Part shown: in pieces, positions 32,035 to 50,055 of the stretch
Layout of the letters: each line of letters begins with the position of its first letter
How positions within the stretch are numbered: the stretch's first letter is position 1
Virus record (IMG/VR): IMGVR_UViG_3300037067_007264
Span: 32,001-96,000 of that record
Origin: a virus
Lineage: Duplodnaviria > Caudoviricetes
Length of the DNA stretch: 64,000 bases
Reading direction: 5' to 3' (one strand)
Translations under genes and position numbers: made by a program
Notes under the pieces: generated by a model
The model's input: only the letters and a program-made list of their open reading frames with translations
Databases searched by the model: none
Told to the model about the DNA's origin: nothing

Positions 32035-32526
32035 ATGCAAGATACGAAAGAGGAGCAAAGCATAGAAGAGTATTGGGGTTTGTTCAGGGATAGCCTGCCT
32101 GGAGCAGAGTCCTCAGTAGAGGCAATCTATCGTATTTTGGAGATTCTGTGTCGGCAGGTTGACGCCTTCTCAGGTTGTGATGAACGAAAAGGGAGGTATC
32201 CGCAGCTAGTTACCTCCCGTACTCGGAACCTACCTAGTTGGAAGCTCACCTTGACCTACTGGAATCACACTCAGGATGAGGCCGTGATTCTAACCTCAAC
32301 TGGTCAAGTGTACTCAACCGTAGTTGCAGACTTATTCAATCAGGTAACCTCAGCCCTGAAAAAAGAGACTGCAAAACGGATCGCATGGGTGGATGATACT
32401 GAGAGGGAGTTGGCTGCCCTGAAGAAAAACCTTCATATCTCAGAGAAGTTCTGCAGTCTCCTCGGAACTTATGTCCCTGAACAACAGAGCCTACCCATTG
32501 GGAGTATGGCTAAAGAGCTTACCTGA
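32035..32526 (+). CDS. Hypothetical protein, N-terminal motif SIEEYWGLFR
   Basis: GGTGTA 9 nt upstream; motif. Confidence 0.8.
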   Translation: MQDTKEEQSIEEYWGLFRDSLPGAESSVEAIYRILEILCRQVDAFSGCDERKGRYPQLVTSRTRNLPSWKLTLTYWNHTQDEAVILTSTGQVYSTVVADLFNQVTSALKKETAKRIAWVDDTERELAALKKNLHISEKFCSLLGTYVPEQQSLPIGSMAKELT

Positions 32527-32806
32527 CGGCTTCGAAGAGGGTCAGTTCCCCTTCGGGGAACCCGATATGGCAGTCCTCTTCTGGGCTCCCCACGGGCTCG
32601 TAGTCGTAATCTAGGTTGCCAAGCATCCAGAACCCTCCTTCAGCCCTCTGGCACCTTATCAGCGAGATGGGGCAGTTGAATCCAGGGTCGTCTGGGTTGT
32701 AGAGGTGAAGATGGGCCCAAACGATGAGCCCATCTTTGAGGTCTTTCTCTTTTAGTAACCGTCCGCGCTTGTACCAAATCTTGCCAAGCTTCTCACGATT
32801 TGACAT
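32519..32806 (-). CDS. Hypothetical protein
   Basis: ORF. Confidence 0.7.
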   Translation of the reverse strand: MSNREKLGKIWYKRGRLLKEKDLKDGLIVWAHLHLYNPDDPGFNCPISLIRCQRAEGGFWMLGNLDYDYEPVGSPEEDCHIGFPEGELTLFEAVR

Positions 32807-32873
32807 ACTGACTACCCGGATAGCACCCTTTTAGTGTAAACTTTGGTGAGGATTCGAAACCCCGAGCGTAATA

Positions 32874-33107
32874 CTACTCAATCTGAACTAGGACTTCGAG
32901 AGGTAACTTCGCCTCCTTGAGAACCCAGATTGAACCTTCCGTACCGCCAACTTGTCTTTGGTCCTCAAACCAAAGACAAGTAGCTTGCTCTACTCCATTC
33001 TCAGCCACTATTTTGGAGACCACCATATCAGGACCCTCATCAGTATTGAGGTTAACTCTGTCCCCAACTTTTATGGGTACCTCTTCATCATTGTCTATGT
33101 TTGCCAT
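32874..33107 (-). CDS. YodC/DUF2158-like protein
   Basis: GD-x-V-x-L...GP-x-M-x-V...C-x-WF. Confidence 0.75.
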   Translation of the reverse strand: MANIDNDEEVPIKVGDRVNLNTDEGPDMVVSKIVAENGVEQATCLWFEDQRQVGGTEGSIWVLKEAKLPLEVLVQIE

Positions 33108-33118
33108 GGATTCCCATC

Positions 33119-33706
33119 CTATCTCTTGCCTGATGCTTGTTGAACAACTTGATCAAACGGGGGTAGTGCAGCGGGAGCCTCTCGAGGGGATAGGGAGGGG
33201 GCTGAATCGGAGTGTACTATTACCCCTACCTGAGCCTGTACCCCATCACTCTGGGCTGCTGGCTTCCTTACAACAGCATCTTCCCGTTGGACAGAGGAAA
33301 TCTCTGGAGTCCTCGAGAAGTACCCAGTTTCGGTACCCTTCTTTTTTCGTATCAAGGGTACCAACTGCGGGCCGGCTAAAGGAAGCGGAGTCTCTGGGGG
33401 GCTCGCCGTGCTTGCTATGCTTGCTATGCTTTGGGTTACTTCACCTTTTGTGACCCCAATATAGGCTCTGATGAATGCTTGTAGGTCGTTGTGGTTAGTC
33501 TCAGTATCCTTCGAAAGTTCGTTGAGCCTAGAGGATAAGACCTCGTATGTAGCTTTAGTGGCCGTCGTATCCGGTGGCTTGAACCAACTCGCTGCTGCAG
33601 TTAGAATGGCAGCGGTACCTAAAATGAAACCCCTAGCCGACAGAACCTGGGACAAGATCTTGAAAGCTTTGGATGTTGGGGGCTCAGAAGGATTTTCGTC
33701 GGCCAT
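33119..33706 (-). CDS. Hypothetical membrane-anchored protein
   Basis: One TM helix and coiled coil. Confidence 0.75.
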   Translation of the reverse strand: MADENPSEPPTSKAFKILSQVLSARGFILGTAAILTAAASWFKPPDTTATKATYEVLSSRLNELSKDTETNHNDLQAFIRAYIGVTKGEVTQSIASIASTASPPETPLPLAGPQLVPLIRKKKGTETGYFSRTPEISSVQREDAVVRKPAAQSDGVQAQVGVIVHSDSAPSLSPREAPAALPPFDQVVQQASGKR

Positions 33707-33785
33707 GATGTTTCATGACACCGGTAAACTGAGAAAAGTATTGAGAAAAGGATCTCTTGCACGTAATACTGATTAGGAGTTCTAA

Positions 33786-34007
33786 ATGAGCAGTAGGCCA
33801 GGGAAATTTGAAGGAGAACCGGGTTATGTTCCGGAGTTCTGGGCTAGAGCAATGGAAGGCTTTGCGGACAATCATGAAGAAGGAGTACTCAGCTTCACTA
33901 TCACTGAAGAGGACGCTAGGAAGTACCCTGAGTTGGTTGTGGGTCACAAGTTGCTGTTGACCGAGTCCACTGACGGATTCGTATTCTCTAGGATCGTCAA
34001 ATGCTGA
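33786..34007 (+). CDS. Hypothetical protein
   Basis: SD AGGAG; PGKFEGE...E-x-x-x-GFV. Confidence 0.75.
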   Translation: MSSRPGKFEGEPGYVPEFWARAMEGFADNHEEGVLSFTITEEDARKYPELVVGHKLLLTESTDGFVFSRIVKC

Positions 34008-34210
34008 ATCTTAGGATAAGAACATTCAAGATATTCTTCCAACGCAGTGACAATACTAAGTTTTTTCGGGTTGTAAGGGAGATCTACTCCGAAAACGCTT
34101 GTCTCTTCGCCGAAAGGGTTGGTCTAGAAGAGGGGGCTATTCCACTATGGCCCTTCGTCGATATCAGTCCTTGGAGGCACAAAAGAGACAGAAGATCGAA
34201 AAATAGTTGA
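34001..34210 (+). CDS. Hypothetical protein
   Basis: Overlapping coupled ORF. Confidence 0.5.
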   Translation: MLNLRIRTFKIFFQRSDNTKFFRVVREIYSENACLFAERVGLEEGAIPLWPFVDISPWRHKRDRRSKNS

Positions 34211-34260
34211 GCTTCATCTCTCTCATCCGTAATAGTGAGTGCAGTTACTAGGAACACCCA

Positions 34261-34509
34261 ATGCAATACGAGGATACAATCAAACCAGAGCCTCTAAACG
34301 AATGTGAATTTCGTTGTGGGTTTAGTATAGCTCGCATTGTATCCCCAAGTGTTTTCGACCGAATCCCCTCCAAGTCTAACTCACTCCGGATGGGTTTCAT
34401 TGCTTACCATTCGATCGCAACAGGAACCTTCTCCTCTGTTGAGGAGCTGGCCGCGGCCGACTTTGCCGAAAGTCTCAACCTAACCCCACCTACTACCAAG
34501 TCTGGATAA
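34261..34509 (+). CDS. Hypothetical protein
   Basis: ORF. Confidence 0.6.
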   Translation: MQYEDTIKPEPLNECEFRCGFSIARIVSPSVFDRIPSKSNSLRMGFIAYHSIATGTFSSVEELAAADFAESLNLTPPTTKSG

Positions 34510-34511
34510 TC

Positions 34512-35045
34512 ATGTCTGACCCGAAGTTTGAAGTTGATGAACCTGTAAACGTAATTGGTGATGAGCAAGTGTTCCCAGGAACTGTGCTCGGTATCCAGTT
34601 CAACGTACCCGTCTGGTGGTACATTATCGGATTGGATGACCCGATTGAATCAGACTATGGACCTCAAAAAGGTCTGTTCGTTCCAGAATCCTGTTTGGAG
34701 GAGTGCCAAGAAGAGGATTCCGAACCCGTCATCATCGAGAGTGAGTGGTCAACAGTTGGGTCCTACGTTTACGTTTGCAATCAAGAGCAGGTAGACCAAG
34801 GACACCCCACGGCCATTGACGTCGAAGTACGACTTGTCCACGATGACGAGGGTAGGATCTACATTCAGACCGTTGATGAAATTGACGGAACCTCATTATG
34901 GGATGATATCCCATACTTTACCCAAAGTGATGCCCTCATTATGGCTAAAGAGGTAATCTCCGAGAGTCACGAAGCTGAACCAACGGAGAACGCGGCGGCC
35001 TACCTAGCACGTGTTATGGCTGAAGAGCAGGCTGAGTCCCACTGA
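34512..35045 (+). CDS. Acidic hypothetical protein (N-terminal SH3/KOW-like segment)
   Basis: PKFEVDEPV...G-x-V...W-x-Y. Confidence 0.75.
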   Translation: MSDPKFEVDEPVNVIGDEQVFPGTVLGIQFNVPVWWYIIGLDDPIESDYGPQKGLFVPESCLEECQEEDSEPVIIESEWSTVGSYVYVCNQEQVDQGHPTAIDVEVRLVHDDEGRIYIQTVDEIDGTSLWDDIPYFTQSDALIMAKEVISESHEAEPTENAAAYLARVMAEEQAESH

Positions 35046-35445
35046 CAGCTTCCCAGTCAATCCCGAACTCCTTACGTAACTCCTGAACTCGATGGGCTGG
35101 AAACTCCAGCCCTTGATGTGGGTAGAACTCATTGGCCTGACGATGAACCAGACACAAGAAGGTCTGCTTGGTGTAGACAAATCCAGCTAGAGCCATTTCT
35201 TCTTTAGTGGCCGAGCGGGAACCCATCCCATAGGGAACTGAACTGAAGAATAGGGCCATTGCGTACTGATCGTCCAGGTCGAGGAGGATTGCAATATGCT
35301 CTCCCCGTTCATCTTGGTGGATCACAACGTTTCCAACGAGAACCTCACCACATCCAGCGGGATCCAAATTGACAACTCGAGCTCTAAAGGGGATTGAACC
35401 CCCTCGCTTTCTATAAGCGGGTCTTCCTCGGGCCATGACAAACAC
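35014..35445 (-). CDS. Hypothetical protein
   Basis: ORF. Confidence 0.75.
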   Translation of the reverse strand: MFVMARGRPAYRKRGGSIPFRARVVNLDPAGCGEVLVGNVVIHQDERGEHIAILLDLDDQYAMALFFSSVPYGMGSRSATKEEMALAGFVYTKQTFLCLVHRQANEFYPHQGLEFPAHRVQELRKEFGIDWEAVSGTQPALQP

Positions 35446-35589
35446 CTTCTAAGTGATACACTTCTTACAAGTAACTTCAATAGAATTGATTCCGATTAGG
35501 TGTCCAGAAACTTTAGTGAGCTTCACGCAGGTGATTCGTAGTACTTGAGGAACCATGCACGCATTGAAAATCAATAGAGATCACTGGAT

Positions 35590-35834
35590 CGGACGACCCC
35601 CAGCTGAGGCTCAACGAGTTGAGCGGTGGACTGGGAAGCGGTGGATACCGGACGACGGACGACCAGGTCTGGCTTTCAGTGGGGTTATCTTTGACGGAAA
35701 CCCTAAATGCGAAATCCCGACCCCGATAGCTTGGACGTCAGGGTGCGAATGCCACCTGATATCTGCAAGCGGGTGCCCTTCAAGTATCGCCGCTCGGTAT
35801 ACGGCCAAGCGATTTGGCTGTAGCAACGGGGATA
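35590..35834 (+). ncRNA. Candidate large structured RNA
   Basis: Several G-U-containing stems on the + strand; GC-rich; the overlapping ORF has an atypical composition; CGTAGTA motif upstream. Confidence 0.4.
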
Positions 35835-35950
35835 AAATGATTAGACTTCATCTCCGTTTAGTAGCAAAATCCCAGAAGGTGTCAAGGGGACTTCATGGAA
35901 AATAGAACTAGGAACAATCCAGACAAGGATAATCCGTAGAGGGCTGACGC

Positions 35951-36664
35951 ATGATCATCTACTGTATCATTGCTGGTTTGGCCTTAGTTGGACTTGTTAT
36001 CGGACAGAACAAGCTTGACATCCGGAGGAGATCTGGGGCATTCATTCTAGACGATGGGGGTGAGCGGTGGGTTGTAGACTTCACCATCGGGATGATGTAC
36101 TATCGATACTTCTACAAGGTTCCACATCCGACTGATAGATACTTAGGTCTGGACTATGAGATTCGACTAACTCATCCACTAATATGGAGAGGATGCGGAG
36201 TTACAGTAGAGCCTCCAGAAACCCATCTTTGGGAGATGAGGCTCACGAAAGAATCCCACGACCTAGCTCATAGGGGTGCAGTTGATCGGCTCCTCAATCC
36301 ATCTGGGTTGTCTGAGAAGTCTCGTAACCGAGTTAGTAAAGAGATTCAAATTGACCTCCTCGAGCTCGGTCCAGAGCCCACTTGGAAACCAGTTCCACCT
36401 TGGTTGATTGGGGTCTTAGAGTCTCGCCACAAGGTGTTTCTTCGGTATCCTTTAGCTTACGAAGAAGGAATCTATCAAAACCACCCTGGTAGGGTAGAGG
36501 ACATCAAACGTTACCTCACCCGAGATGGGAGCCCCACATGTTCCAATGGCTCAAAAGGTGGTTCACAATCCAAGAGGTACCTAAAGATATACGGTACTGC
36601 GAGTTCGACTGCAGGAAGACGAGTTGCACCGAAGAGGAGAGACTCACGTGTTCTCGTCGGTTAA
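35951..36664 (+). CDS. Hypothetical membrane-anchored protein
   Basis: N-terminal TM helix. Confidence 0.75.
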   Translation: MIIYCIIAGLALVGLVIGQNKLDIRRRSGAFILDDGGERWVVDFTIGMMYYRYFYKVPHPTDRYLGLDYEIRLTHPLIWRGCGVTVEPPETHLWEMRLTKESHDLAHRGAVDRLLNPSGLSEKSRNRVSKEIQIDLLELGPEPTWKPVPPWLIGVLESRHKVFLRYPLAYEEGIYQNHPGRVEDIKRYLTRDGSPTCSNGSKGGSQSKRYLKIYGTASSTAGRRVAPKRRDSRVLVG

Positions 36665-36723
36665 ACCTGGAAGAGCTGGAAGCTCAGAGTCAAAGGGGAT
36701 CCCCGGAAGATGAACACGGATAA
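36538..36723 (+). CDS. Small Cys-containing protein
   Basis: CEFDCRK-x-x-C...C-x-RRL. Confidence 0.6.
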   Translation: MFQWLKRWFTIQEVPKDIRYCEFDCRKTSCTEEERLTCSRRLNLEELEAQSQRGSPEDEHG

Positions 36724-37009
36724 GGTAGCTCAAAGGATGACCACCACTTGTTTCCACGATGGGGCCGTCTATGTCGAATCGAATGGCCTCACCGTTTGGG
36801 TCAACGAACAAGGCAAGTGTGTTGCTAGGTTTGGCCAACACTTCAGGGAATTCCTCATGGATTCAACAACTCCCGAAGTGGTCAAACACGCAAACTCAAC
36901 CCCTACGTTGACCGACTGGAATGACTTCGTCACCGTTGTCGAGAGTTACTGCAAGGTCAAGATGGGTGCTGAACATCGCCCTCGGTACATCAGGGCTTGG
37001 TCCCCATGA
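36710..37009 (+). CDS. Hypothetical protein
   Basis: ORF in + operon. Confidence 0.7.
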   Translation: MNTDKVAQRMTTTCFHDGAVYVESNGLTVWVNEQGKCVARFGQHFREFLMDSTTPEVVKHANSTPTLTDWNDFVTVVESYCKVKMGAEHRPRYIRAWSP

Positions 37010-37245
37010 AGTGTCCTTATTGCCTTCAGGACCCCGATAAGCATTCCCCAGGATGTCCAAACCTGTGTACCCTAGATGATGCCCACTGGGCCATTTCAAT
37101 CTACCACCTAGGTCGTGATCGGAGTGTTATGGGACTCCCCTGTCCGGCCGATGCGTCACCCACCTACAAACTAGGATATCACTTTGGAGAGCTCCTAACC
37201 GGGAAGTCTCAAAATCTTAGTGAGGATCCTGGCCCTGGTACGTAA
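37006..37245 (+). CDS. Small Zn-binding protein
   Basis: CxxC...HxxxC. Confidence 0.65.
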   Translation: MKCPYCLQDPDKHSPGCPNLCTLDDAHWAISIYHLGRDRSVMGLPCPADASPTYKLGYHFGELLTGKSQNLSEDPGPGT

Positions 37246-37253
37246 TACTAGGC

Positions 37254-37688
37254 ATGTACACAAGCCCACTTCATCAAGGTTACCTAGACGCCCTTTACGG
37301 GAAAGATCAAGACCCTGAGCAGACTTGTTCTGAATACGAAGAGGGTTACATTGTAGGCCTATGTGACAGGGATGAACTAGCCGCTGGCACGCAACCTCCG
37401 AAGTTCCTCGGCTGCTATCGGGAAGATGACTTACCCATTAAGAGAGGTCAGGAAGTGATCATCCCCAAGGGTACGATGGTCAAGGTTGTAGGGAAGCCAG
37501 CAAAGCCTGCTGGGAGGACTTACAAGATCACAGTAGCTCACGTGAATAGTGGGAACACCTTCTATGTTAAAGGGAGCGCTTTCCGGAAAGAATACATCCG
37601 TCCAACTTCACCTAAGGTTGTATGGCCTGGCACTGGTGGCTACTGGGCAGAAGCCGACCTGAACGACATACTCAAGGCCAACCCATGA
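37254..37688 (+). CDS. Hypothetical protein
   Basis: CGTAATA motif upstream. Confidence 0.75.
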   Translation: MYTSPLHQGYLDALYGKDQDPEQTCSEYEEGYIVGLCDRDELAAGTQPPKFLGCYREDDLPIKRGQEVIIPKGTMVKVVGKPAKPAGRTYKITVAHVNSGNTFYVKGSAFRKEYIRPTSPKVVWPGTGGYWAEADLNDILKANP

Positions 37689-37721
37689 CAGGGCCCGTTA
37701 TCTCCGGTGTAAGCCTAATGG

Positions 37722-38003
37722 ATGTCCATTGATCCATTCACCGGTGAATTCGAAAGTCGCCGAGAGGCAAAACTAACCATCTCAAGGGTCATTACGGACA
37801 GGGGGCCAGACGTTTGCGTGCATCTCTTATCAGCTGATGGTACTGAAGTTGCTGTACTCTCACTTTTGCATGCATCACACTTTGTATCACCTGGGGGTAC
37901 TCGAGAGGCCGTAGCAAGATGGTTGGGTGAGATGAACAACACCAAGCCACCAAAGATTCCGGTGGAACCTCCAACGAGATTTGAGCGCGAGGAAGTGATC
38001 TAG
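37722..38003 (+). CDS. Hypothetical protein, tag PTRFEREEVI
   Basis: GGTGTA upstream; tag. Confidence 0.85.
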   Translation: MSIDPFTGEFESRREAKLTISRVITDRGPDVCVHLLSADGTEVAVLSLLHASHFVSPGGTREAVARWLGEMNNTKPPKIPVEPPTRFEREEVI

Positions 38004-38329
38004 ATCACCGGGTTTCGTTCAAAGCGGGTTGGAGCTATTACTTTCGGTTCTTCCACTGATGCACTCTCGTTGACAATAGGGTCACCCGTCCTGGGTGACC
38101 CATCTCTTTGATATTGAACATTATTGACTACTATGTAAGCTGCATCATCTGCCGCAGCTTCAACGGCGTCTTCGGTAGCAAGTTCACCTAGTACTCGTTC
38201 CTGTATTAGGGTCAAGTATACAGCCAGAGACCTCTGTGTGACGTCATAGACATCCTCAGGATCAAAACCCTCTTCCAGGAGGGTATCGACCATATCTTCG
38301 GCAATGGCTGAGATGTCTCGAGCGGGCAC
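38000..38329 (-). CDS. Hypothetical protein, tag PTRFERNPVI
   Basis: Tag; converges on the previous gene. Confidence 0.85.
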   Translation of the reverse strand: MPARDISAIAEDMVDTLLEEGFDPEDVYDVTQRSLAVYLTLIQERVLGELATEDAVEAAADDAAYIVVNNVQYQRDGSPRTGDPIVNESASVEEPKVIAPTRFERNPVI

Positions 38330-38338
38330 CGGGACAGG

Positions 38339-39196
38339 TTACACTAAGTTCCGTATCGGTTCAAGTCGTACCTTGAGCTTTTTTACGACCTTAGTCTGCA
38401 ATTGGCGTACCCTCTCGCGGGAGACCCCGAGTTGAGTACCTAGTTCCTTGAGGCTCACAACCTCTTCCGGATCCTTCATGAGACGATCCGTCACGATTCT
38501 AATCTCGCGTGGGGTTAGGGAGGACATAGCTTCTTTCACGGATTCTTGGTAGAGAGCTTGAAGCTCATGGTCCACCACATAATCATCCTGTCTCTGCAGG
38601 TCAGAGGACAGACTGTCTCCAATCTCCAAGTGGCTACCATCTTTGCTCCTATGGGAGTCCATCGACAAGGACAAGTCCCTCTTATCGGTAGCCTGCATGA
38701 ATTGTTGAACCTTCTTCAGAGGGAGATTCATGCTCTTTACTAATGCCTGTTCAACCTCACTTGGAGTCGTGTAAGTGTTCTGAGCTCGGACCTTCTCCTT
38801 ATGAAACTTGAAGAAGTCCTTTGATCGAAACTTCACTAAAGAGTTGGTCTCGTTTTGGTACTTGACCACATGTTTGAATAGGTAGGCTCGAATCCAATAC
38901 ACGGCAAATGTGACGAATCGGTTACCACTATCTGGATCGTAACGACTGTCAATAGCCATAAGGAGGCCAAGGTTACCCTCGCTGATCAGCTCCTCTATTG
39001 GAATTGGGTATCGCTTAAACTGAAGGGCAACCGCGGTCACATATCGTAGAGAAGCGTTAATGATCTTTGCTCGAGCTGCATAGTCTCCTTTGTCCCTCCA
39101 AGCCTTGTACAGACGAATCTCCTCTTCTCTTGAGAGTACAGGGATCGACTTCACATAGGTGATGTAGTCAGATATCGTCTTATCAATATGGAACAT
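38339..39196 (-). CDS. RNA polymerase sigma-70 family factor (RpoH/RpoD-like)
   Basis: Region 1.2 LSREEE, region 2 ELISEGNLGLL-x-A...YDP...RF-x-TFA-x-YWIR, region 4 L-x-ELG-x-x-LGVSRERVRQ. Confidence 0.93.
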   Translation of the reverse strand: MFHIDKTISDYITYVKSIPVLSREEEIRLYKAWRDKGDYAARAKIINASLRYVTAVALQFKRYPIPIEELISEGNLGLLMAIDSRYDPDSGNRFVTFAVYWIRAYLFKHVVKYQNETNSLVKFRSKDFFKFHKEKVRAQNTYTTPSEVEQALVKSMNLPLKKVQQFMQATDKRDLSLSMDSHRSKDGSHLEIGDSLSSDLQRQDDYVVDHELQALYQESVKEAMSSLTPREIRIVTDRLMKDPEEVVSLKELGTQLGVSRERVRQLQTKVVKKLKVRLEPIRNLV

Positions 39197-39249
39197 GGGT
39201 GGCTACTAACTATACCTCAATAGAAGATAAGAGGGGGACTATAAGCAGA

Positions 39250-39792
39250 CTATCGATTCCTTGTGTTGAACTCAAGGAGGTCCATCCTCGCTCTTAGTTC
39301 TTGATTATCGCTCTCGAGTCTCGCTATTCGACCCAGTAGTTCACTGAGGGTATAGGTCAGCCTCACATTATTTTCATACACGATACTCTGAAGTTGATTG
39401 AAATCATTGTTACCTGATATGTCAAGGTGGTGGATGGAATCCCAAGAACCCATACCCCCACTCGAGACAAGTAAGGGTCCACCACCAGATAGACCATTGC
39501 CGATGTTTTCTGGTGCAGGGCCGATCTGAACTCCAGTAGGTTCAACTTGAAGAGGCCTTAATGAAGAAGAATCGATGCGTATGGACCCACTATCATCCCC
39601 GTAGAATGTTGGATGTAACACCTCGGATGTAGGAGGACCAAGTATTCCAGATGGATAGTTCCTATGAGTCATCAAGTCCCATTCCTCTTCACGAAGTTTG
39701 GAAATCTTGAGAAGCTCATCCCGAAGACTGCTGATGGACGGCTTTGGTGCAGGCCTGATAGCCGCCCAGTACTCTTCTAAGTCGTCTTCCAT
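39250..39792 (-). CDS. Hypothetical protein, N-terminal motif DDLEEYWAAIRP
   Basis: Start set by GGTGTA; motif; C-terminal coiled coil. Confidence 0.8.
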   Translation of the reverse strand: MEDDLEEYWAAIRPAPKPSISSLRDELLKISKLREEEWDLMTHRNYPSGILGPPTSEVLHPTFYGDDSGSIRIDSSSLRPLQVEPTGVQIGPAPENIGNGLSGGGPLLVSSGGMGSWDSIHHLDISGNNDFNQLQSIVYENNVRLTYTLSELLGRIARLESDNQELRARMDLLEFNTRNR

Positions 39793-39859
39793 TGAGGTAT
39801 CGGTTACACCGAAGTTCAATGTCTTGCGTTTTTCAATGGTTCGGTGTAACTGGTAGCCA

Positions 39860-40555
39860 GTGTTCAAGAAAGACGTTAGGGAGATTGATACCCTGGATGT
39901 TGACGAGAGTGGTCACCTGAAGACCGCACTCGAAGCCCTTCGATTACTAATCATTGAAAAGCTTGAGTCAGGTCAAAGAACTCGATTCGCTTCAGTGGCT
40001 AGCTTGTGTGATGTAGCTCAATCGCTAATGAGATCTGAAGCGAACCCACGAGTCCCAAAGAGTAGGAAAGTTGCCTATATGGAGGATTATGAGGGTGCTG
40101 AGGGTGAGTATACCCCAAACGTTGTTGGAGATGTCCAATTCATGGGTCAACCAGTAATGTACCCGGATCCTAGGTACCAAAAAAGGAACATGGGTATTCA
40201 GATGGATGCCCTTTCCCAAGTTAACATAGAGAATCAGCGGTCTCAATGGGCTGCAGCTGAAGCTCAAGAACTTCGAGACTTGCTATCTGTTCGTGAAGTT
40301 ATAGGGGCATCTAGTAATAAAGATCTACTCGATGCCAGAGTAGCTAAGTTATTCAAGAACATAGGAGAGAGAACTGAAAATGGTAACCTGGTACATTCCG
40401 AGCTTTCACGGGGATCTTCAACTGGAGGCTCTAAGTCCAACAGAGACATCCCTTCGAATGTACAGCCTGTCCAATGTGGAACTGAGGGTAATGGAATCCT
40501 TCAGGAAGAAGGCTCTGAGAGGCGGGATACTATTCAAGCCTTGGGCGACAGCTGA
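39860..40555 (+). CDS. Hypothetical protein
   Basis: GGTGTA upstream. Confidence 0.75.
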   Translation: MFKKDVREIDTLDVDESGHLKTALEALRLLIIEKLESGQRTRFASVASLCDVAQSLMRSEANPRVPKSRKVAYMEDYEGAEGEYTPNVVGDVQFMGQPVMYPDPRYQKRNMGIQMDALSQVNIENQRSQWAAAEAQELRDLLSVREVIGASSNKDLLDARVAKLFKNIGERTENGNLVHSELSRGSSTGGSKSNRDIPSNVQPVQCGTEGNGILQEEGSERRDTIQALGDS

Positions 40556-41168
40556 TAGCTTCCCTCCCATTTCGGAGTCCATATGTAGGACGGACCAGGG
40601 AATGACAGTTCGACTCCAGGCCTCTATCACCAAGGTAGCCAAGCACATAACTTCCAGACTGAAGCCCAGTCGAAGTCAGATCTCGGTAGTGAAGCTATCC
40701 AATGGTAATCTTCAGGAGTATAGGATCGATCCAACTCCTTCTGTAGCGGTAGCCTATCGAAGACCCTCTGTGACAGAGTCCATTGAGGAGTACTGGGAGG
40801 CTATCAAGTTGCCGGCGCTTACCGTGGCAGCTACGACAGTTGCCGTACCGGATAGAGGTTGTCCCGTTCCTGAATTTGCCAAGGCTGAGATTCGAGCTAC
40901 AAGGGTTCTAGAGGCATTCTTGGACCCAGGACAGATGGAGGACTTCCGACGGACAAATCAATTCATTACCATTGGTCAGGATACCGGCCATCGATACCTA
41001 CTTACCTCACGGATGAAGGTGAATAAGGGAGCCTTGTTTGACCTGGATCTTGATCGGTCCATTTGTGTACATGATTGGGAGGTACCAGCAGCTGAAGAGC
41101 TTTTGGGTCTCCACTTGTTCCTATCACTCCCAGGTTGGGAGAGTTGGATGCTCGAACTACCGGAGTGA
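40380..41168 (+). CDS. Hypothetical protein with internal SIEEYWEAIK motif
   Basis: 262-aa ORF. Confidence 0.8.
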   Translation: MVTWYIPSFHGDLQLEALSPTETSLRMYSLSNVELRVMESFRKKALRGGILFKPWATADSFPPISESICRTDQGMTVRLQASITKVAKHITSRLKPSRSQISVVKLSNGNLQEYRIDPTPSVAVAYRRPSVTESIEEYWEAIKLPALTVAATTVAVPDRGCPVPEFAKAEIRATRVLEAFLDPGQMEDFRRTNQFITIGQDTGHRYLLTSRMKVNKGALFDLDLDRSICVHDWEVPAAEELLGLHLFLSLPGWESWMLELPE

Positions 41169-41170
41169 TT

Positions 41171-42192: not shown

Positions 42193-42235
42193 GGCTTCCA
42201 ATACACCGAGTCACGGGGTATACTAGCTTGAGCAG

Positions 42236-42751: not shown

Positions 42752-43822
42752 ATGCAATCTTGTTATCTCGCGGGGCCAGGGACAGTCGACAGGGTTAACA
42801 TCCTACGGGAGGGTACTGATGGGGCAGAGATGAAAGTTGTTCCAGCAAATCCAGTAGTTGTAGAGCTGGTCAAAGAGCGCTATTGTTTCGTGGCCAGCAG
42901 AGACGTTCTATTTGAAGACCCTGAAGCTGCTGGTTTGGAAGCTGAACGGCTTCGAGTTGCAGATATGGAAGCCAGACGTAGACGACAGAAAGAGATTCAA
43001 CAGATGATCAACGCAATGGATAACCAAGGTACGGGTGGGGATACTCAGACACAGGCACCGAATCTCGTTCTGGTGGAAGCCCCTCAAGAGGAGGTAACTC
43101 TTGAAGTGGAAGAGCAAGAAGTCATAGACATAGAGCCGGAGCTTCCGAAATCTAGTCTTGACTTGAGTGAAGAGGACAACGGATCCAACCCCGCCAGTCC
43201 TGTGAACTTCTTGAAGAACATTCAACGGGTGATCGGGAATGAAACCCTATCATTGGAAGAGGTTCACTCAAGGTTGAAGGCTGCTAAGTTGATGCCAGCC
43301 GCTAATAACCCGATCCACTATATCAAGTTTGTCATGTCTCAGGATCGAATCTTATTTGAGCGCCCAACTCGAATGAGTGTTTGCTTGACAGCAGAGAGCC
43401 CTTACTTGGCAACCACTTGGAACCCGGCGAAGGTTTCTACTAAGAAGTCTTCCAAGTCAAAAATTGAAAGTCAAACGCAAACACTTCCACTTGGAACTGT
43501 CAAGAAGAAGCCGGTAAAGAAGCCAGTTGAGCAGAAACCGTTGAAGATCAACCCAGTCTTCTTGACTTGGTTAGGTAATCCGATCACTCAGACGGTTTCG
43601 GACAAAGCTAATTTTGATGGGGAGAAGATGCGGTTACTCGAGCAACAGAAGGGTAACTCCTGGACCTGCGAGATCTTCTTGGTTGATCTGAAGCTATCCT
43701 TCACTGGGGAATCCAAGATGCGGCACCATGCCCGACACAAGGCAGAGGTAGCTATGAAAGAATCCATCAACGAGCTCAACATTCTAGTTCATAACGCTAC
43801 TCATCTAGAAGAAGATGCCTAA
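42752..43822 (+). CDS. Hypothetical protein with putative winged-helix domain
   Basis: Domain shared with 44442..45266; CGTAGTA upstream. Confidence 0.8.
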   Translation: MQSCYLAGPGTVDRVNILREGTDGAEMKVVPANPVVVELVKERYCFVASRDVLFEDPEAAGLEAERLRVADMEARRRRQKEIQQMINAMDNQGTGGDTQTQAPNLVLVEAPQEEVTLEVEEQEVIDIEPELPKSSLDLSEEDNGSNPASPVNFLKNIQRVIGNETLSLEEVHSRLKAAKLMPAANNPIHYIKFVMSQDRILFERPTRMSVCLTAESPYLATTWNPAKVSTKKSSKSKIESQTQTLPLGTVKKKPVKKPVEQKPLKINPVFLTWLGNPITQTVSDKANFDGEKMRLLEQQKGNSWTCEIFLVDLKLSFTGESKMRHHARHKAEVAMKESINELNILVHNATHLEEDA

Positions 43823-44411
43823 GTCCCGTTGGGTGGTCATCGGACCCACTCTTGTCAAGGTACTGAGCGGTAGAAAACGTAAGTTCGTTCAATGCCGTTG
43901 CAAGTGTGGGACTGTCCGATACGTTCAGGAAGTCTCCATCAACTCAAACCGCAGTAAATCCTGTGGTTGTATCTCAAGGGAGAAGAGCGCCAGTAGACCT
44001 GTACGTCATGGATACTCCAGGCGTAATCGGTCCCCAGAGTATAGAATATGGTCTTCGATGTTATCCAGGTGTCGGAATCAAAACGATGCCAACTGGCCTC
44101 GGTATGGTGGGGTTGGGATCACTGTCTGTGAGAGGTGGTACCAATTCGAGAACTTCATCAAAGACATGGGAAAAAGGCCCACCGATAAGCGACTGGGACG
44201 CAAGAATGTCACCAAGGGGTATACTAAGAAAAATACCCTCTGGGTGACAATGGAAGAGAGCGCAAATAACCGGCGCAAGTCCTGTTTGATTACCTTCAAA
44301 GGGGTTCGGATGACGGCAGCAAGGTGGGGGAGGAAGTTTGGCATTCCGTCAAGTACGATAACCAACAGGATACTCCGTGGAAAACAGGGTAAGAGAGCTT
44401 TATTTGGGTAG
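43815..44411 (+). CDS. Phage HNH-type (homing) endonuclease
   Basis: CxCxCG, SKSCGC, Y-x-x-W-x-x-M-x-x-RC, YGG-x-GI-x-VCERW-x-x-F-x-NF-x-x-DMG, N-x-x-W-x-T...NNRR. Confidence 0.85.
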   Translation: MPKSRWVVIGPTLVKVLSGRKRKFVQCRCKCGTVRYVQEVSINSNRSKSCGCISREKSASRPVRHGYSRRNRSPEYRIWSSMLSRCRNQNDANWPRYGGVGITVCERWYQFENFIKDMGKRPTDKRLGRKNVTKGYTKKNTLWVTMEESANNRRKSCLITFKGVRMTAARWGRKFGIPSSTITNRILRGKQGKRALFG

Positions 44412-44441
44412 AGTCGCTATGCTGGTGTACTGACTTGGACG

Positions 44442-45266
44442 ATGCCAAAAAAAACCGTCCGAGCCTATCTCAGTGAGCGAGAGTATATGCAATTCAACAT
44501 CCTAGCAGCCAAAAGAGGTCTTAGCCGTACTCTATTGACACTAAGAGTAATCCAAGAGTACTTAGTGTCTCAAGCGCGAGTTGAGCGTTACATGGTAGAC
44601 CCCGTTGCGGTTCCTGTAGAAACTAAGACGATCAAGATCAATACTCGGCAGTATGCCAGGTTGAAGAAGCTTCAAGTTGATGTACCAGGGTGCTCATGTG
44701 AAGTTCTCGAAGTTGAAGACGTCAAGAACATAATGCTGACCTACCCACTGAGTCGCGAAGCTGACGTTCTGAAGTTCTTAGCTGACTGCCCCAAGGGCTC
44801 GAGAAAGGAGTCCAAGGTCTTTAAGAAAATGGACCCAACTGCAACTCCAGGACTGAAGGCTGCTAGGCGTAAGAAAGAGGAGAGTGAGGGAGCTACCATC
44901 CACTCTCGAATCATCATGGCAGCTGAGAAGATCCTGATGGGGAGTCCTTTGCCGTTCGAAGACTTGTACTCTCAACTCAAGGCTCTAAAAAGAATTCCCG
45001 GTGGGTTTAACCCAAAGCCAATCCTCAGGAGACTACTAAAGGAGAGCCAGTTGTTTGACCTGAGCTCCGATGACACCTACTCTATTAGAGTTGAGTGCCA
45101 AGAAGAGTCGACTCCAGAACCAGAGGACCCAACACCAAACCCGGCTTCAGAAGCGGTTATTGAAGCTCCTCCAATATCTGAAACCCGGATTGAGGTAACC
45201 CCGAGTAAACCTGAGGGTTCAATCCCAAAAGTTCCAGTCCACTTTCCAAGATGGTCAGGAAGTTGA
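44442..45266 (+). CDS. Putative DNA-binding protein (RHH-like N-terminus plus winged-helix-like domain)
   Basis: KKTVRAYLS...AAKRGLSRT...IQEYL; shared domain. Confidence 0.7.
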   Translation: MPKKTVRAYLSEREYMQFNILAAKRGLSRTLLTLRVIQEYLVSQARVERYMVDPVAVPVETKTIKINTRQYARLKKLQVDVPGCSCEVLEVEDVKNIMLTYPLSREADVLKFLADCPKGSRKESKVFKKMDPTATPGLKAARRKKEESEGATIHSRIIMAAEKILMGSPLPFEDLYSQLKALKRIPGGFNPKPILRRLLKESQLFDLSSDDTYSIRVECQEESTPEPEDPTPNPASEAVIEAPPISETRIEVTPSKPEGSIPKVPVHFPRWSGS

Positions 45267-45307
45267 TAAACTTGACTCTTGCTAGGTAACATGCCTAAAA
45301 GGCAAAC

Positions 45308-45838
45308 ATGTCTAGCAGACTGAGAGCTCTTGAATCCGATATCACTACACTCAACGTTGATGTAATTGTCAATGCTGCCAACGAAGTTATGCTTGGAGGC
45401 GGCGGGGTAGACCACGCAATCCATGCTGTAGCAGGGCCAGGGCTTCTGGAAGCCTGTAAGAGGGTCGTTGAGGTAAGTCCTGGAGTCAGGTGCCCAACTG
45501 GGGAAGCTCGCATCACACCGGCCTTTAGCCTGCCTTGCAGGTATGTTATTCACACGGTTGGACCCATCTGGAAAGGTGGGTTCAACAAAGAGGCTGAGCT
45601 TCTCACTTCTTGCTACCGAGAGAGCTTGAAGCTCGCAGCTCAATTCGGAACCTCGGTTGCCTTTCCAAGCATCAGCGCCGGGGCCTATGGTTACCCAACG
45701 GATAAGGCTTGTGAGATAGCTGTACGAGAATGCAAAGCATTCCTGAAAACTGACAGAACTCTCAATGATGTGATTCTAGTTTCATACGAGTCACCGATGA
45801 TCTTCGATATCCTCACGAAGATGATCCAATACCTCTAG
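45308..45838 (+). CDS. Macrodomain ADP-ribose hydrolase (MacroD/YmdB-like)
   Basis: DIT, IVNAAN-x-x-x-LGGGGVD-x-AIH, HTVGP, AFPSISAGAYGYP. Confidence 0.95.
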   Translation: MSSRLRALESDITTLNVDVIVNAANEVMLGGGGVDHAIHAVAGPGLLEACKRVVEVSPGVRCPTGEARITPAFSLPCRYVIHTVGPIWKGGFNKEAELLTSCYRESLKLAAQFGTSVAFPSISAGAYGYPTDKACEIAVRECKAFLKTDRTLNDVILVSYESPMIFDILTKMIQYL

Positions 45839-46260
45839 ATTACATCCTCACGCTCGAACCGAGTCGGTGGTAGGGGTGCATCAGGTTCCTTGTGTACACC
45901 TAAGGATTCGGCACGAAGTCTCTTCACAACTTCCTGATCGACAGTTATCCCATTTAGGACCATTGTCTCGAGAATCTCTTCCATAGTCTGAGGGTAATCT
46001 GCAATATTACCCTCAGAGCGAGGCCTAGCAAGAACTACTCTGGTAAAAGGGTTGTAAGCTGGTGATCTAAACTCTCCAATGCGATTCTGGAGGAAGACTT
46101 GAAGGTCCTGCATGAGAGAGGAGCAATTAGCATTGTTCCAAGGTCCAGGACCAAACTCACTACAAGGAAACCCCGTTACATGTACCAATTGACTTTGATC
46201 CTCGAGGCCGCCTGATTCAGAATCTGGAATTAGCCTAATCTGAACTTCGAGGTATGGCAT
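45835..46260 (-). CDS. Hypothetical protein, tag PTRFEREDVI
   Basis: Start MPYLE next to the upstream stop; tag. Confidence 0.85.
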   Translation of the reverse strand: MPYLEVQIRLIPDSESGGLEDQSQLVHVTGFPCSEFGPGPWNNANCSSLMQDLQVFLQNRIGEFRSPAYNPFTRVVLARPRSEGNIADYPQTMEEILETMVLNGITVDQEVVKRLRAESLGVHKEPDAPLPPTRFEREDVI

Positions 46261-46261
46261 A

Positions 46262-46753
46262 TCACAGTACCGGATCCCTCTCGAATCGAGTCGGGGGTAA
46301 GTTTTCTGATGGAGTATCTCCTTCCACACATTGTTGAAGGAAGTTACTGGCTTTCGCCACAGAAGCATCGACCCCAGCAAACCACTTTTTGCTATCTATC
46401 CCGTTCGATTTGAACTCATCCCTCATACTACTGATAGCTATAATGAGATCCCCAAGGTGGTTGACTAAACCAGAAATAATGGCGTCATCCTCTGGAAAAG
46501 ACCTCACTGATGACATTCCCAATTGAGATCGTAGCCATTGCTCGTACAGGAAACCTTGCTCGAGAGCCGCCTGACGGAAGTCTAATGAGCAAGCATAGTT
46601 CTGCCCCAGGGTTCGAGGGTTGGCGTAGTAAATAGCATCGAGAGCCTGATTTATGAGGTTGCCGCCAATGTCCACAGAGATATCTTCGGATACCCCAAAT
46701 TCCTTTAGGGTATCCTTCATGTGAACAAGTAGTGTGTCAATTGAGTGAGGCAT
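46262..46753 (-). CDS. Hypothetical protein, tag PTRFERDPVL
   Basis: Tag. Confidence 0.85.
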   Translation of the reverse strand: MPHSIDTLLVHMKDTLKEFGVSEDISVDIGGNLINQALDAIYYANPRTLGQNYACSLDFRQAALEQGFLYEQWLRSQLGMSSVRSFPEDDAIISGLVNHLGDLIIAISSMRDEFKSNGIDSKKWFAGVDASVAKASNFLQQCVEGDTPSENLPPTRFERDPVL

Positions 46754-47115
46754 TACAGAACCGGATTTCTTTCAAATCTAGTTGGTCGTGAGATACTATT
46801 CGGGAGAAAATTCATGGCAGCTTGTTCTACATGAGACCTTTCTATAATGTATTGAGCTAGATGTACATGGGCTTCTTCAACGGATTTTTCTAAGGAGGTT
46901 TCTTTTCCACTAGCTGTGAAGGAACACCCGTAAGTTCCGCAATACCACTCATAGGGTTTCGGATTGTCAATGTCAGCCAGATCCCTGAAGATAGACATGT
47001 TGTATCCTCCACGGGTCGTGTACCAATAGATCCCTGGTCGTGATGGTTCGTTGGGTCTTCGAGACACCCTGATCCCCAAGAGAATCAACTCAAGATCCTT
47101 TTCCTCAGTTGGCAT
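46753..47115 (-). CDS. Hypothetical protein, tag PTRFERNPVL
   Basis: GGTGTA upstream; tag. Confidence 0.85.
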   Translation of the reverse strand: MPTEEKDLELILLGIRVSRRPNEPSRPGIYWYTTRGGYNMSIFRDLADIDNPKPYEWYCGTYGCSFTASGKETSLEKSVEEAHVHLAQYIIERSHVEQAAMNFLPNSISRPTRFERNPVL

Positions 47116-47203
47116 AGGCTCCAGTTACACCAAAATAGCTTGTAAAGTCAACTCTTCGGTGTACTATGCGACAGGCCAACCCTAAGCCGGCCAAGTGTAA
47201 GGC

Positions 47204-47701
47204 TTGGGTAAAGTAGCTGACACCGACGATATCGAGTCATTCTGGGATGGGCTGAGGCCTCCACGGGATCCGAGTACATTCACCAATGTAGCTGTCGAGA
47301 GTGTCAACTTAGAAAACCCTGTCGATGAGGAATCAATTCCTTATGTGACTCGTTACACCGTTGATTATGGTGACAACTCTCCCCTTGAGATAGAGGAGTC
47401 TAGTGCCTCCTTCACCACTATTGCCGAGGGTAATATCATCACGGACCCACCCTACTCTTCTCACTTGAGTGGCACGGACAGATCAAACAGGAGTCTCTTT
47501 AGAGAGATCGTTTACGCAACGGAAAGACTCCGCCAGTTACTAGGGTCAGCTGGAATAACCTATAACTTCACCAGACTGATAGATGGAATTGATATTAGAG
47601 CTCAGGATCTTAGTATTGGACCTGAAGATCCACGTTTAGGTTACTACCGAGAGATGACTGTTCTCATGGCCAATTCTGAGGATACCAATGCCAGAAGATA
47701 A
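47204..47701 (+). CDS. Hypothetical protein, N-terminal motif DDIESFWDGLRP
   Basis: Motif. Confidence 0.8.
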   Translation: MGKVADTDDIESFWDGLRPPRDPSTFTNVAVESVNLENPVDEESIPYVTRYTVDYGDNSPLEIEESSASFTTIAEGNIITDPPYSSHLSGTDRSNRSLFREIVYATERLRQLLGSAGITYNFTRLIDGIDIRAQDLSIGPEDPRLGYYREMTVLMANSEDTNARR

Positions 47702-49196
47702 TGAAGTTGAATCCTATTGGGACCATCGGGAAGGTATTCGGACTCCTCCGACTCAAGAGTCTCGAGACCAATGGAACCCTAGTGGGCAACAGATATTCAA
47801 CATCCTGACTCGAGTGTTTGCAGATCCTCCCGCCGAGTATATCAGCCAGACTGAGAACGCTAACCTGATCATCACCCATCTAACTCGACAGTACAGGACT
47901 ACAGGTAACTACCCTGACTATGAAACAGTGCGTAATACATTTGAGACGAGAATAGAACCTGGTTGTGTTCTACTCTTAGATCGCATTGTACATAGTAACT
48001 TGTATAGTCGTACCCTGACTAGTGGAGAGTTGTGGGAGTACATGAGGAGGATGTATTCAAGTACCCCTACTTCTCGCATCCCTGAGGTAGATAGACAGAT
48101 CAGTGACTATGTCCTTGAGTATTGCAGGGAACACCATGCCTACCCATCGATAGCTATCATGCGTGGGTACTTCATTTCGAGCATGAGAATTCAGGAACGA
48201 ATTCAGGACTTGATTGTTCGTGTAGGGGGCCTCGATGGTGATATCCCATCTCCAAGCCTACCCCAAGAAGTGACGGCGCTTCAAGAAGAGGGTGAGTCCC
48301 AGAGTCAAGTTATCCTGGATATGCGTAGATTGGCTCTGCTACTGAGCAACCTTCAAGAACTCATCGACAGAGTTGGGGACGATGACCACATTGATTCGAT
48401 CATCACCGAGGTGTTCACTTGGGTTGAAGCTCAAGGTACTGCCCACAACATGCGTACTAGTTGGTGGCAAGACACCCTTCACAACTTCGAGGTTACCTAC
48501 CATATTCGTCGAGGGAGTGTTCATCGACAAGGGACTCATGCTCACGACAGTACTGCTGCAGACCGTAGGATTCTAGCATACACTGAACAGTACATGGGGA
48601 TGGTTGGGCATCTACCGAGCCAGGACGAGACTCGAAGATACTTCACAAGCGAGAATGATGGTCATGCTATAACAAGGTTGTCAGAAATAAACAGGAACGA
48701 AGTACCCCAGCATGAGAGACGCATGGATGCTGGTACCATGTTCCTAGGCCATAACATAGCAGACCTAGAGTTACCGGAGAGACGTTCCGACGATGAGCGG
48801 GAGTATGACACTCGTATCAACCTCAGGCGGGTTGCCCTGCTGCTCAATGGGATCATTGAGACATCCGATAATATGTCAGAACCCCTCAACAGGCGGGTGC
48901 TCAGTAACTTACAGACATCTCTTGATGAGTTAGGGGGTAGAACTTTCAACCATTATGGGGATGAGGACTGGAGGAGGACAACCCTACATAACTTCCGAGT
49001 GGAGTTCCTACCCATGAGTGCTCCGGGCACGTTCCCTCGTCCAGAGGAACTTTATCCAACTGAGAGACATGCCTACCCACCACCTAGGGATCCAATGACG
49101 ACCAGACCTCAGACCAGACCTCAAGAAAGGGTTGCTGAGGACAATAGGGTAGATGGGCCTGCTGAAGATGACTCTGTATCGATAACCAATGACTGA
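47688..49196 (+). CDS. Repeat-containing protein, N-terminal motif EVESYWD
   Basis: Three I-x-x-Y/H...Y/H-P helical repeats and two RR-x-ALLL...TLHNF repeats. Confidence 0.85.
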   Translation: MPEDNEVESYWDHREGIRTPPTQESRDQWNPSGQQIFNILTRVFADPPAEYISQTENANLIITHLTRQYRTTGNYPDYETVRNTFETRIEPGCVLLLDRIVHSNLYSRTLTSGELWEYMRRMYSSTPTSRIPEVDRQISDYVLEYCREHHAYPSIAIMRGYFISSMRIQERIQDLIVRVGGLDGDIPSPSLPQEVTALQEEGESQSQVILDMRRLALLLSNLQELIDRVGDDDHIDSIITEVFTWVEAQGTAHNMRTSWWQDTLHNFEVTYHIRRGSVHRQGTHAHDSTAADRRILAYTEQYMGMVGHLPSQDETRRYFTSENDGHAITRLSEINRNEVPQHERRMDAGTMFLGHNIADLELPERRSDDEREYDTRINLRRVALLLNGIIETSDNMSEPLNRRVLSNLQTSLDELGGRTFNHYGDEDWRRTTLHNFRVEFLPMSAPGTFPRPEELYPTERHAYPPPRDPMTTRPQTRPQERVAEDNRVDGPAEDDSVSITND

Positions 49197-49395
49197 ATCT
49201 GAAGACAGCATCGAGTCCTATTGGGAGGTAGTTCGTCCTCACTTGATAGAGAGAGCTCGTCAACGAAGGGCTGCTCTACTCAAGAATATTCTAGGGGAAC
49301 ATCCGATAAAAACCTACAAGATCATCAAGGAATGGAACACATGTGAGTCCATCAGAGAGTTAAATTTGTCAGATGGCTACTACAAGAAGTGGTGA
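49189..49395 (+). CDS. Small protein, N-terminal motif SIESYWEVVRP
   Basis: Motif. Confidence 0.75.
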   Translation: MTESEDSIESYWEVVRPHLIERARQRRAALLKNILGEHPIKTYKIIKEWNTCESIRELNLSDGYYKKW

Positions 49396-49436
49396 CATAG
49401 AATCATATTGGGAGGTAGTTCGTCCTCACTTGATAG
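49219..49436 (+). repeat. 31-nt exact direct repeat (49219-49249 and 49406-49436)
   Basis: tattgggaggtagttcgtcctcacttgatag in two adjacent genes, encoding YWEVVRPHLI. Confidence 0.9.
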
Positions 49437-49705
49437 TCGAAAGCTCCATCAACTCCATGGTATTGCTGAAGGCTTTGATGAGGGTTAGCCGAAGAGTTTT
49501 GGTGCCAACCTTTGCGGCTGACCTGAAGATCCGCGAGTATATCTCGACGGTATTCAACACCTTCGGGGTCGAGGTCAGGTTTGAAACGATCCGGGAGCAC
49601 TTCCGTGGGGTACTAACTGAGTATGACTTCGAAAAGCCATCTGAAAACTTGGAGGTGCTCAAACGTCTTGACGAGATCTCCCGCATGTGGCCGGATGTGC
49701 TTTGA
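49373..49705 (+). CDS. Hypothetical protein, N-terminal motif DIESYWEVVRP
   Basis: Motif; helical repeat like those in 47688..49196. Confidence 0.8.
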   Translation: MATTRSGDIESYWEVVRPHLIVESSINSMVLLKALMRVSRRVLVPTFAADLKIREYISTVFNTFGVEVRFETIREHFRGVLTEYDFEKPSENLEVLKRLDEISRMWPDVL

Positions 49706-50055
49706 TGACTGATGACATCGAGTCCTACTGGGAAGGCCTACGCCCGCCGCGTAAACCAGGGAAGGATCCGCCCAAGGGCAGTGTCTGTGACCATATCGAT
49801 CCGACCAAGATCGAAGGTTACCACATTTCAGAAGATGCTCTGTACCTGCTCGAGGATCCAGTGGATGGGGCTACTGCCTCTGACTACCAGGGAGAGTCCT
49901 GCGTAGTGTTCAGACCCAGGTGGTACAAGCTGCACCGGTGGGTCTGGTGGCTGTTCATCACTGGAGGGTTACTCTCCTCATACGAGTGGACCTTTACAGT
50001 GATAGACCTGAAGGTACATAAAGCCTATCGCCGAAGGAGAGAGTGGCCTGGCTAG
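49705..50055 (+). CDS. Hypothetical protein, N-terminal motif DDIESYWEGLRP
   Basis: TGATG coupling; motif. Confidence 0.8.
   Translation: MTDDIESYWEGLRPPRKPGKDPPKGSVCDHIDPTKIEGYHISEDALYLLEDPVDGATASDYQGESCVVFRPRWYKLHRWVWWLFITGGLLSSYEWTFTVIDLKVHKAYRRRREWPG

Follow-up and report, generated by a model that had tools for sequence, protein, structure and literature searches.

A short peptide motif at the N termini of otherwise unrelated proteins marks a set of genes in a huge phage, and to judge by its pattern of conservation it is a real, previously undescribed N-terminal address label. The motif was found in a 64,000-nucleotide stretch of DNA (the window) comprising bases 32001-96000 of a 145,487-bp IMG/VR record (IMGVR_UViG_3300037067_007264; Caudoviricetes); because this record is estimated to be 28% complete, the phage should have a genome of roughly 0.5 Mb. 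We refer to the motif as the EYW tag, or N-tag, and to a second, C-terminal motif of the same genome as TRFER, or the C-tag. It is likely, in our view, that the EYW tag serves as a portable docking (address) tag, a confidence that does not extend to ClpX as its reader. Huge phages contain many small orphan genes that offer no handle for study, and a shared tag would supply one. It would single out, in each genome, about 20-70 proteins obliged to meet one and the same partner, and a 13-residue synthetic peptide used as bait could expose an undescribed pathway of sorting, packaging, or timed degradation.

Occurrence and conservation of the EYW tag

A six-frame scan of the window located eight copies of the motif, all of them at the places listed in a preliminary description of this DNA, and found the TRFER motif to be equally real. 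Seven copies are N-terminal, lying within 16 residues of an upstream stop, and one is internal. Per-protein shuffles predicted 0.45 matches where 8 were seen and 0.08 N-terminal matches where 7 were seen, which excludes chance. The whole 145-kb record holds 12 N-terminal and 3 internal matches, together with about 26 TRFER tails. Relatives were sought in IMG/VR with a degenerate DNA pattern for D-I-E-x-Y-W-xxx-R-P, the reversed pattern serving as control, and two were found: G001, a complete genome of 512,571 bp with terminal repeats (17 looser pattern matches versus 1 in the control), and G003, a 71-kb fragment (6 matches versus 0). Shuffling gave 2.9 expected matches in G001 versus 25 seen, and the majority of copies in the shuffle-test set fell within the first 30 residues. 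The N-terminal carriers of G001 comprise 19 called genes, one F-for-L variant, and three small uncalled open reading frames (about 23 in all), the uncalled three being orthologues of a trio at 49.2-50.1 kb of the window; TRFER tails in the same genome number 46-48. The carriers in the window, and the TRFER genes beside them, are as follows.

32035-32526, plus strand: 163-aa carrier with the tag variant SIEEYWGLFRDS (codons 32059-32097), which lacks R-P (YWGLFRDS); orthologues in G001 and G003 retain IEEYW.
39250-39792, minus strand: carrier of about 180 aa that starts with MEDDLEEYWAAIRP at the ATG at 39792 (MEDDLEEYW...); orthologues in two relatives start MEDDFEEYW or MEDDFEDYW.
40380-41168, plus strand: 262-aa two-domain protein with the internal tag SIEEYWEAIKLP at residue 134 (codons 40779-40817).
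45835-47115, minus strand: three TRFER genes (45835-46380, 46262-46753, and 46753-47115), divergent from the tagged run and without a Pfam family.
47204-47701, plus strand: 165-aa carrier with DDIESFWDGLRPPR, which opens a run of five tagged genes.
47688-49196, plus strand: 502-aa carrier with EVESYWDHREG, lacking R-P (YWDHREG); its body has an internal duplication.
49189-49395, plus strand: 68-aa carrier with DSIESYWEVVRPH; the G001 counterpart is truncated.
49373-49705, plus strand: 110-aa carrier with GDIESYWEVVRPH; its 5' end has 30 nt identical to the gene at 49189.
49687-50055, plus strand: carrier of about 116 aa with MTDDIESYWEGLRPPR (MTDDIESYW); the probable start is the ATG at 49705.

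This layout, in which five tandem tagged genes at 47.2-50.1 kb (plus strand) diverge from the TRFER trio at 45.8-47.1 kb (minus strand), agrees with the preliminary description, although the R-P with which its motif ends is missing from the genes at 32035 and 47688.

The consensus of 40 N-terminal copies, drawn from four genomes, is [DE]-D-[ILV]-E-[SE]-[YF]-W-[DE]-x-[ILV]-R-P-x-R, in short form a 13-residue helix D-I-E-S-Y-W-x-x-h-R-P-x-R. All 40 copies have the W; the E that follows the first hydrophobic position is found in 36 of them, the first R in 34, the second R in 27, and the P in 25, and 39 of the 40 lie 3-10 residues from the probable start. Hydrophobic residues fall at i, i+3/4, and i+7, a spacing that implies one hydrophobic helix face with the acidic residues on the other. 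The tag is probably a short amphipathic helix with the stripe [ILV]..[YF]W..[ILV], an acidic opposite face, and an R-P-x-R cap, tethered by a variable, disordered, Pro/Glu-rich linker to unrelated small accessory proteins; one shared partner would read it, bringing all carriers to one place or fate.

The copies differ from one another by synonymous codons (for example, GAC ATC GAG TCC TAC TGG versus GAT ATC GAG TCA TTC TGG), and it is therefore the peptide that is conserved and selected, not a DNA repeat. The sole exception is the pair of genes at 49189 and 49373, which share 30 identical nucleotides (TAT TGG GAG GTA GTT CGT CCT CAC TTG ATA) within window positions 49189-49260 and 49373-49450; this identity is evidently the trace of a recent local duplication or gene conversion that spread the tag. 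In seven orthologous triplets, 52 of 87 tag columns are invariant (60%), compared with 593 of 1617 columns in the protein bodies (37%; Fisher p = 2e-5).

It could be argued that the motif has no address function and is a favored 5' gene end, spread by local duplication or conversion and retained because it aids expression or generically caps the N terminus. Genes with the same tag do cluster: among the 548 genes in the tag-bearing arms of G001, of which 19 have the N-tag and 46 have TRFER, neighbor pairs are enriched for both EYW-EYW (p = 0.002) and TRFER-TRFER (p = 0.008). Local duplication of 5' ends thus contributes to the spread of the tag, which counts against a docking function, and the 30-nt identity and the presence of a motif, TTCGGTGTA, upstream of several tagged genes fit the same explanation. 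We nevertheless find it very improbable that expression or capping alone accounts for the motif, given the synonymous codon variation, the invariant W and conserved hydrophobic stripe of the 40 copies, the stronger conservation of tags than of bodies, and the conservation of the internal copy. Moreover, in G007, a related genome that lacks the N-tag system, an orthologue of a tagged protein has LEECRRDLRR at the site of IEEYWxDLRR in the tagged genomes, so that the YW is lost.

A docking or modification site for an enzyme such as a kinase, acting at the S of I-E-S-Y-W, was also weighed. That position is S in 18/40 copies and E or D in 22/40, as would befit a phosphorylatable residue and its mimics; S-x-x-[DE] is the type of site used by acidophilic kinases, and G001 has a weak protein kinase-like gene (240283-241326). 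However, this gene does not reach the Pfam cut-off, nothing was shown to link it to the tags, and the invariant residue is W rather than S; we give a kinase site little credence.

Modular architecture of the tagged proteins

When the 12 tag residues were masked, BLASTP on the carriers of the three genomes returned seven orthologous triplets, about 20 singletons, and one within-genome paralogue pair. Apart from the tag, the carriers are evidently unrelated to one another, and the motif is not confined to recent tandem paralogues, which the preliminary description had named as the outcome that would count against it. Its proposal that unrelated proteins share a second addressing motif acting at the peptide level gains support from this result, from the copies across the 145-kb record and in relatives, and from the addition of the tag to a preexisting domain family.

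Pfam and PHROGs returned nothing for the eight carriers in the window, and for the 502-aa carrier at 47688 there was also no usable ESM Atlas match. At least one carrier is probably a membrane protein, because the product of 49687-50055 has a hydrophobic segment, WVWWLFITGGLLSSYEWTFTVI, near its C terminus that is probably membrane spanning. Of 26 carriers, one contains helix-turn-helix repeats and another DUF7448. The latter (G001 36243-36740) consists of the tag (residues 1-19), a length-variable linker (residues 20-48), and the DUF7448 domain, and has about 500 homologues. Among the best 120 of these, the tag is found only in the closest 10 (51-100% identity, 153-169 aa; 9 with the full tag and 1 with a shortened one), followed in each case by a Pro/Glu-rich linker of variable length, whereas the other 110 (106-268 aa, most 115-145) begin at the domain. 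The tag was, on this comparison, added to a preexisting domain family. In the AlphaFold2 model of this carrier family, residues 6-15 form a helix (pLDDT about 55), residues 19-42 are disordered (pLDDT <50), and a beta domain follows (pLDDT >90). A Foldseek search of this carrier against the PDB found nothing below E = 0.04.

In the 262-aa protein at 40380, the internal tag sits in a variable linker that joins two halves conserved in three genomes. Its IE[ED]YW is retained in all three, the adjoining linker varies, and in G001 there is no start codon nearby; a free N terminus is therefore not required. An AlphaFold2 model of this protein, from an alignment of 3 sequences, was unusable (pLDDT 33). 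These comparisons indicate a peptide that is under selection, modular in its arrangement of tag, linker, and body, and usable from an internal linker.

The architecture is like that of encapsulin cargo-loading and microcompartment encapsulation peptides, in which an amphipathic helix tag is joined through a flexible linker to unrelated cargo. Those peptides are read by the shell protein of a compartment, and encapsulin tags are C-terminal; in contrast, the EYW tag is N-terminal, no compartment is known in the phage, and the only HK97-fold shell gene found was that of the phage major capsid protein.

Distribution of the two tag classes

Scans of metagenome and genome collections for the EYW motif returned mainly chance matches that were not N-terminal. 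The genuine matches were a few short contigs of two samples, belonging to the same clade, the source contig of G001, and a 6.6-kb contig binned into an Omnitrophota metagenome-assembled genome. Searching GenBank phages with the tag peptides by tblastn gave no match, a full-text literature search for TRFER and phage yielded nothing relevant, and the EYW motif was in no paper found. A region-restricted protein search with the tag returned only the query's own cluster, a method by which breadth is not measurable.

Relatives of the ClpX encoded by G001 were found in five further huge-phage records, of which G005-G008 were compared; the fifth, G004, contains a ClpX fragment identical to that of G005. 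Two phages without ClpX, LR745208.1 (485 kb) and the cultured Tunturi_5 (309 kb), were found via the capsid protein and added for comparison.

G001: ClpX present, 46-48 C-tags, 19+ N-tags.
G005: ClpX present, 8-14 C-tags, 4-5 N-tags.
G006: ClpX present, 7 C-tags, 0 N-tags.
G007: ClpX present, 4 C-tags, 0 N-tags.
G008 (43% complete): ClpX present, 0 C-tags, 0 N-tags.
LR745208.1: ClpX absent, 0 C-tags, 0 N-tags.
Tunturi_5: ClpX absent, 0 C-tags, 0 N-tags.

By these counts, the set of genomes with the N-tag is nested in the set with the C-tag, and the latter is nested in the set with ClpX. As far as the genomes compared can tell, the EYW tag was a later addition, forming a second tag class within one huge-phage sub-lineage that already had the C-terminal TRFER. 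With two tag classes on separate sets of proteins and nested distributions, the system would be seen in the act of gaining a second ligand. The EYW tag differs in sequence from other terminal tags of huge phages, namely, the C-terminal P-[ST]-R-[FY]-[DE]-R family and the N-terminal MNRYDIALGKKPPP; unlike the former, it is N-terminal and restricted to a sub-lineage, in which the two coexist on separate proteins.

Judged by the capsid protein (48% identity), the closest relative in culture is Tunturiibacter phage Tunturi_5 (PP885688.1), which has an Acidobacteriota host and comes from Finnish soil. Hints as to the host are weak and conflicting, with Acidobacteriota suggested by Tunturi_5 versus Omnitrophota suggested by the genome bin with the 6.6-kb tagged contig.

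Relation to the TRFER tag

TRFER tails take two forms in G001 and the window: ...PTRFER[ED][EDP]V[IL]-stop, with exactly four residues past the R, and ...(Y-x-G-P-R-)PTRFERIL followed by 2-6 mainly acidic residues. The proteins that bear them include a RecA-like ATPase, one Tad2-like anti-defense domain, and a few carriers with pieces of the major capsid protein. R-P-x-R is present in both tags. All EYW- and TRFER-tagged genes of G001 lie at 0-290 kb or 500-512 kb, with none in the 290-500 kb arm.

The preliminary description raised the possibility that the two tags are complementary partners. The acidic EYW helix of one protein would then bind the Arg-rich TRFER tail of another and so pair the two sets. 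The two tags do share the same arms of the genome, on separate proteins, and the charges in the first half of the N-tag are opposite to those of TRFER. Five EYW-TRFER neighbor pairs, four of them divergent, were seen in the arms of G001, but this is not enriched over the 3.2 expected (p = 0.21). As had been described, no protein in the window carries both tags, and none does in the arms of G001; however, only 1.6 double-tagged proteins are expected there, and zero would arise by chance about 1 time in 5, so the mutual exclusivity is not significant. The counts are also unequal, with 23 EYW versus 46 TRFER copies in G001 and 0 versus 7 in G006, where TRFER must work without the N-tag, and specific pairs are impossible from generic tags. 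Direct pairing of the two tags is thus most unlikely.

One TRFER-tagged protein of G001, a 219-aa RecA/DnaB_C-like protein, is encoded beside a gene for a 981-aa AAA+ ATPase (291481-294426) that is split by an intein with a LAGLIDADG domain.

ClpX as a candidate reader

The leading specific candidate for the reader of the EYW tag is the phage's own ClpX or an adaptor to it, an assignment that is tentative and that we do not regard as probable. The ClpX gene of G001 (277071-279446, minus strand) scores 442 bits, compared with an NCBIfam equivalog cut-off of 359, and has an intein in its P-loop, which is missing from the corresponding genes of G006 and G008. The G001 protein retains the zinc finger, GYVG, and an IGF-like MGF loop and has KAG in place of the RKH pore-entry loop. 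The tag could bind the N-terminal zinc domain of the phage ClpX, or an adaptor, as a tether or degron, and phage ClpX together with host ClpP would then unfold or remove accessory proteins on schedule. If ClpX is indeed the reader, the tags would constitute a natural orthogonal degradation system that could be used as a tool.

The N-domain of ClpX docks short peptides in disordered tails or linkers, such as the SspB XB tail, lambda O, MuA, UmuD, and the FtsZ linker (PMC3983244). These recognition or tethering peptides are like the EYW tag in being short and in lying in disordered termini or linkers of unrelated proteins, and they come in both N- and C-terminal classes (PMC3983244). The EYW tag likewise stands in an unstructured terminus or linker, as a low-confidence helix followed by a disordered, variable linker. 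A single AAA+ hub is the reader in the ClpX system (PMC3983244), and the tagged phage clade encodes its own ClpX (G001 and G005-G008). Phage G, which has a related capsid protein, encodes both ClpX and ClpP, and both were detected by particle mass spectrometry (PMC12484599). The systems differ in that ClpP was not found in G001, that ClpX-bearing relatives are without the N-tag, and that binding of the tag to ClpX is only a candidate interaction.

A number of observations weigh against ClpX. The phyletic link is weak, because 72 other G001 genes, head-module genes included, share the presence/absence pattern of ClpX and because the phages without ClpX are distant, having only 33 and 117 proteins in common with G001. 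The N-tag is missing from G006, G007, and G008, all of which have ClpX; no change in the ClpX zinc domain that tracks the N-tag was seen among the compared genomes; and there is no ClpX gene on the 145-kb record of the window, although that record represents only about 28% of the genome. Flynn and colleagues are reported to have defined, in 2003, five classes of E. coli ClpX recognition signals, and the tag is not known to match any of them; to the SspB XB tail it has only a loose likeness in R-P..R and hydrophobic residues.

No reader was singled out by the searches. A complex prediction with the ClpX zinc domain (2 copies, with Zn) and the first 40 residues of a tagged protein gave a score of 0.02 (mark 0.32), which speaks neither for nor against binding. 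About 43 G001 genes share the phyletic pattern of the N-tag, and none of the 10 that were scanned against Pfam has a peptide-binding family. That another hub reads the tag is, in our estimate, rather unlikely. A broader scheme would have an older TRFER and a younger EYW tag forming an orthogonal addressing system, both read by a rewired ClpX (RKH to KAG) that controls the lifetime or remodeling of about 9% of phage proteins, most of them rapidly evolving accessory and anti-defense proteins; this is a speculative extension that we consider distinctly unlikely.

Capsid loading as an alternative

In a T4-type capsid-loading scheme, the helix would bind the scaffold or inner capsid, and accessory proteins, for example, anti-defense proteins, would be packed and injected with the DNA; the tag would then be a general cargo-loading signal, usable as a tool. 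The T4 prohead protease cleaves at [LI]-x-E. The EYW tag has no such conserved terminal site, as its consensus ends in R-P-x-R, and its only resemblance is [ILV]-E-[SE] at the helix start, with [ILV]-x-E found only in E-E variants at that same place. The attraction of the scheme is its logic, in which the T4 internal proteins are diverse, counter host defenses, and share only a short N-terminal capsid-targeting sequence (PMC3012670). In IPI, IPII, IPIII, and Alt, as in the EYW carriers, a short N-terminal peptide is the sole common feature of diverse, fast-evolving accessory proteins (PMC3012670). The layout of tag, linker, and cargo fits such a scheme, the parallel TRFER set has its few carriers with major-capsid pieces and one with a Tad2-like domain, and huge capsids offer room for cargo. 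The two peptides have no sequence likeness, however, and the EYW tag is placed 3-10 residues from the start and occurs once in a linker, at residue 134 of 262, from which position it apparently also functions.

The gene order of G001 does not favor capsid loading. Its 290-500 kb arm encodes terminase, portal, head-maturation protease, a 479-aa scaffold candidate, and a 289-aa capsid protein, with the head module at 403-418 kb; a Peptidase_S78 prohead protease was searched for and was absent. No tagged gene lies outside the accessory arms, each being at least 100 kb from the portal-protease-scaffold-capsid module, and 6 of the 19 tagged G001 genes, or one third, are preceded by a motif not found in the head module; the tagged genes are thus not colocated with those for head assembly and show no sign of coregulation with them. 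With TRFER included, about 9% of all genes would need packaging. We therefore regard capsid loading as rather doubtful and retain docking to a shared partner as the more general reading of the EYW tag.

In G001, about 97 genes have the upstream motif, TTCGGTGTA or more loosely YGGTGTA, with its end about 10 nt from their start codon, and it is 8-12 fold enriched 5' of genes in that genome. The head module is without it and has AGGAG-type ribosome sites before its genes; the motif may be a phage promoter for near-leaderless transcripts. Sites of TTCGGTGTA in the window are at 32017, 47155, 50169, and 51108 on the plus strand and at 39813 on the minus strand, and one copy is placed 18 nt 5' of the ATG of the carrier at 32035.

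Untagged neighbors

Two untagged genes with recognizable products lie among the tagged genes of the window. One encodes a Macro-domain protein (45308-45838, plus strand; E = 5e-42), and the other a sigma-70 family factor with regions 2 and 4 (38339-39196, minus strand).

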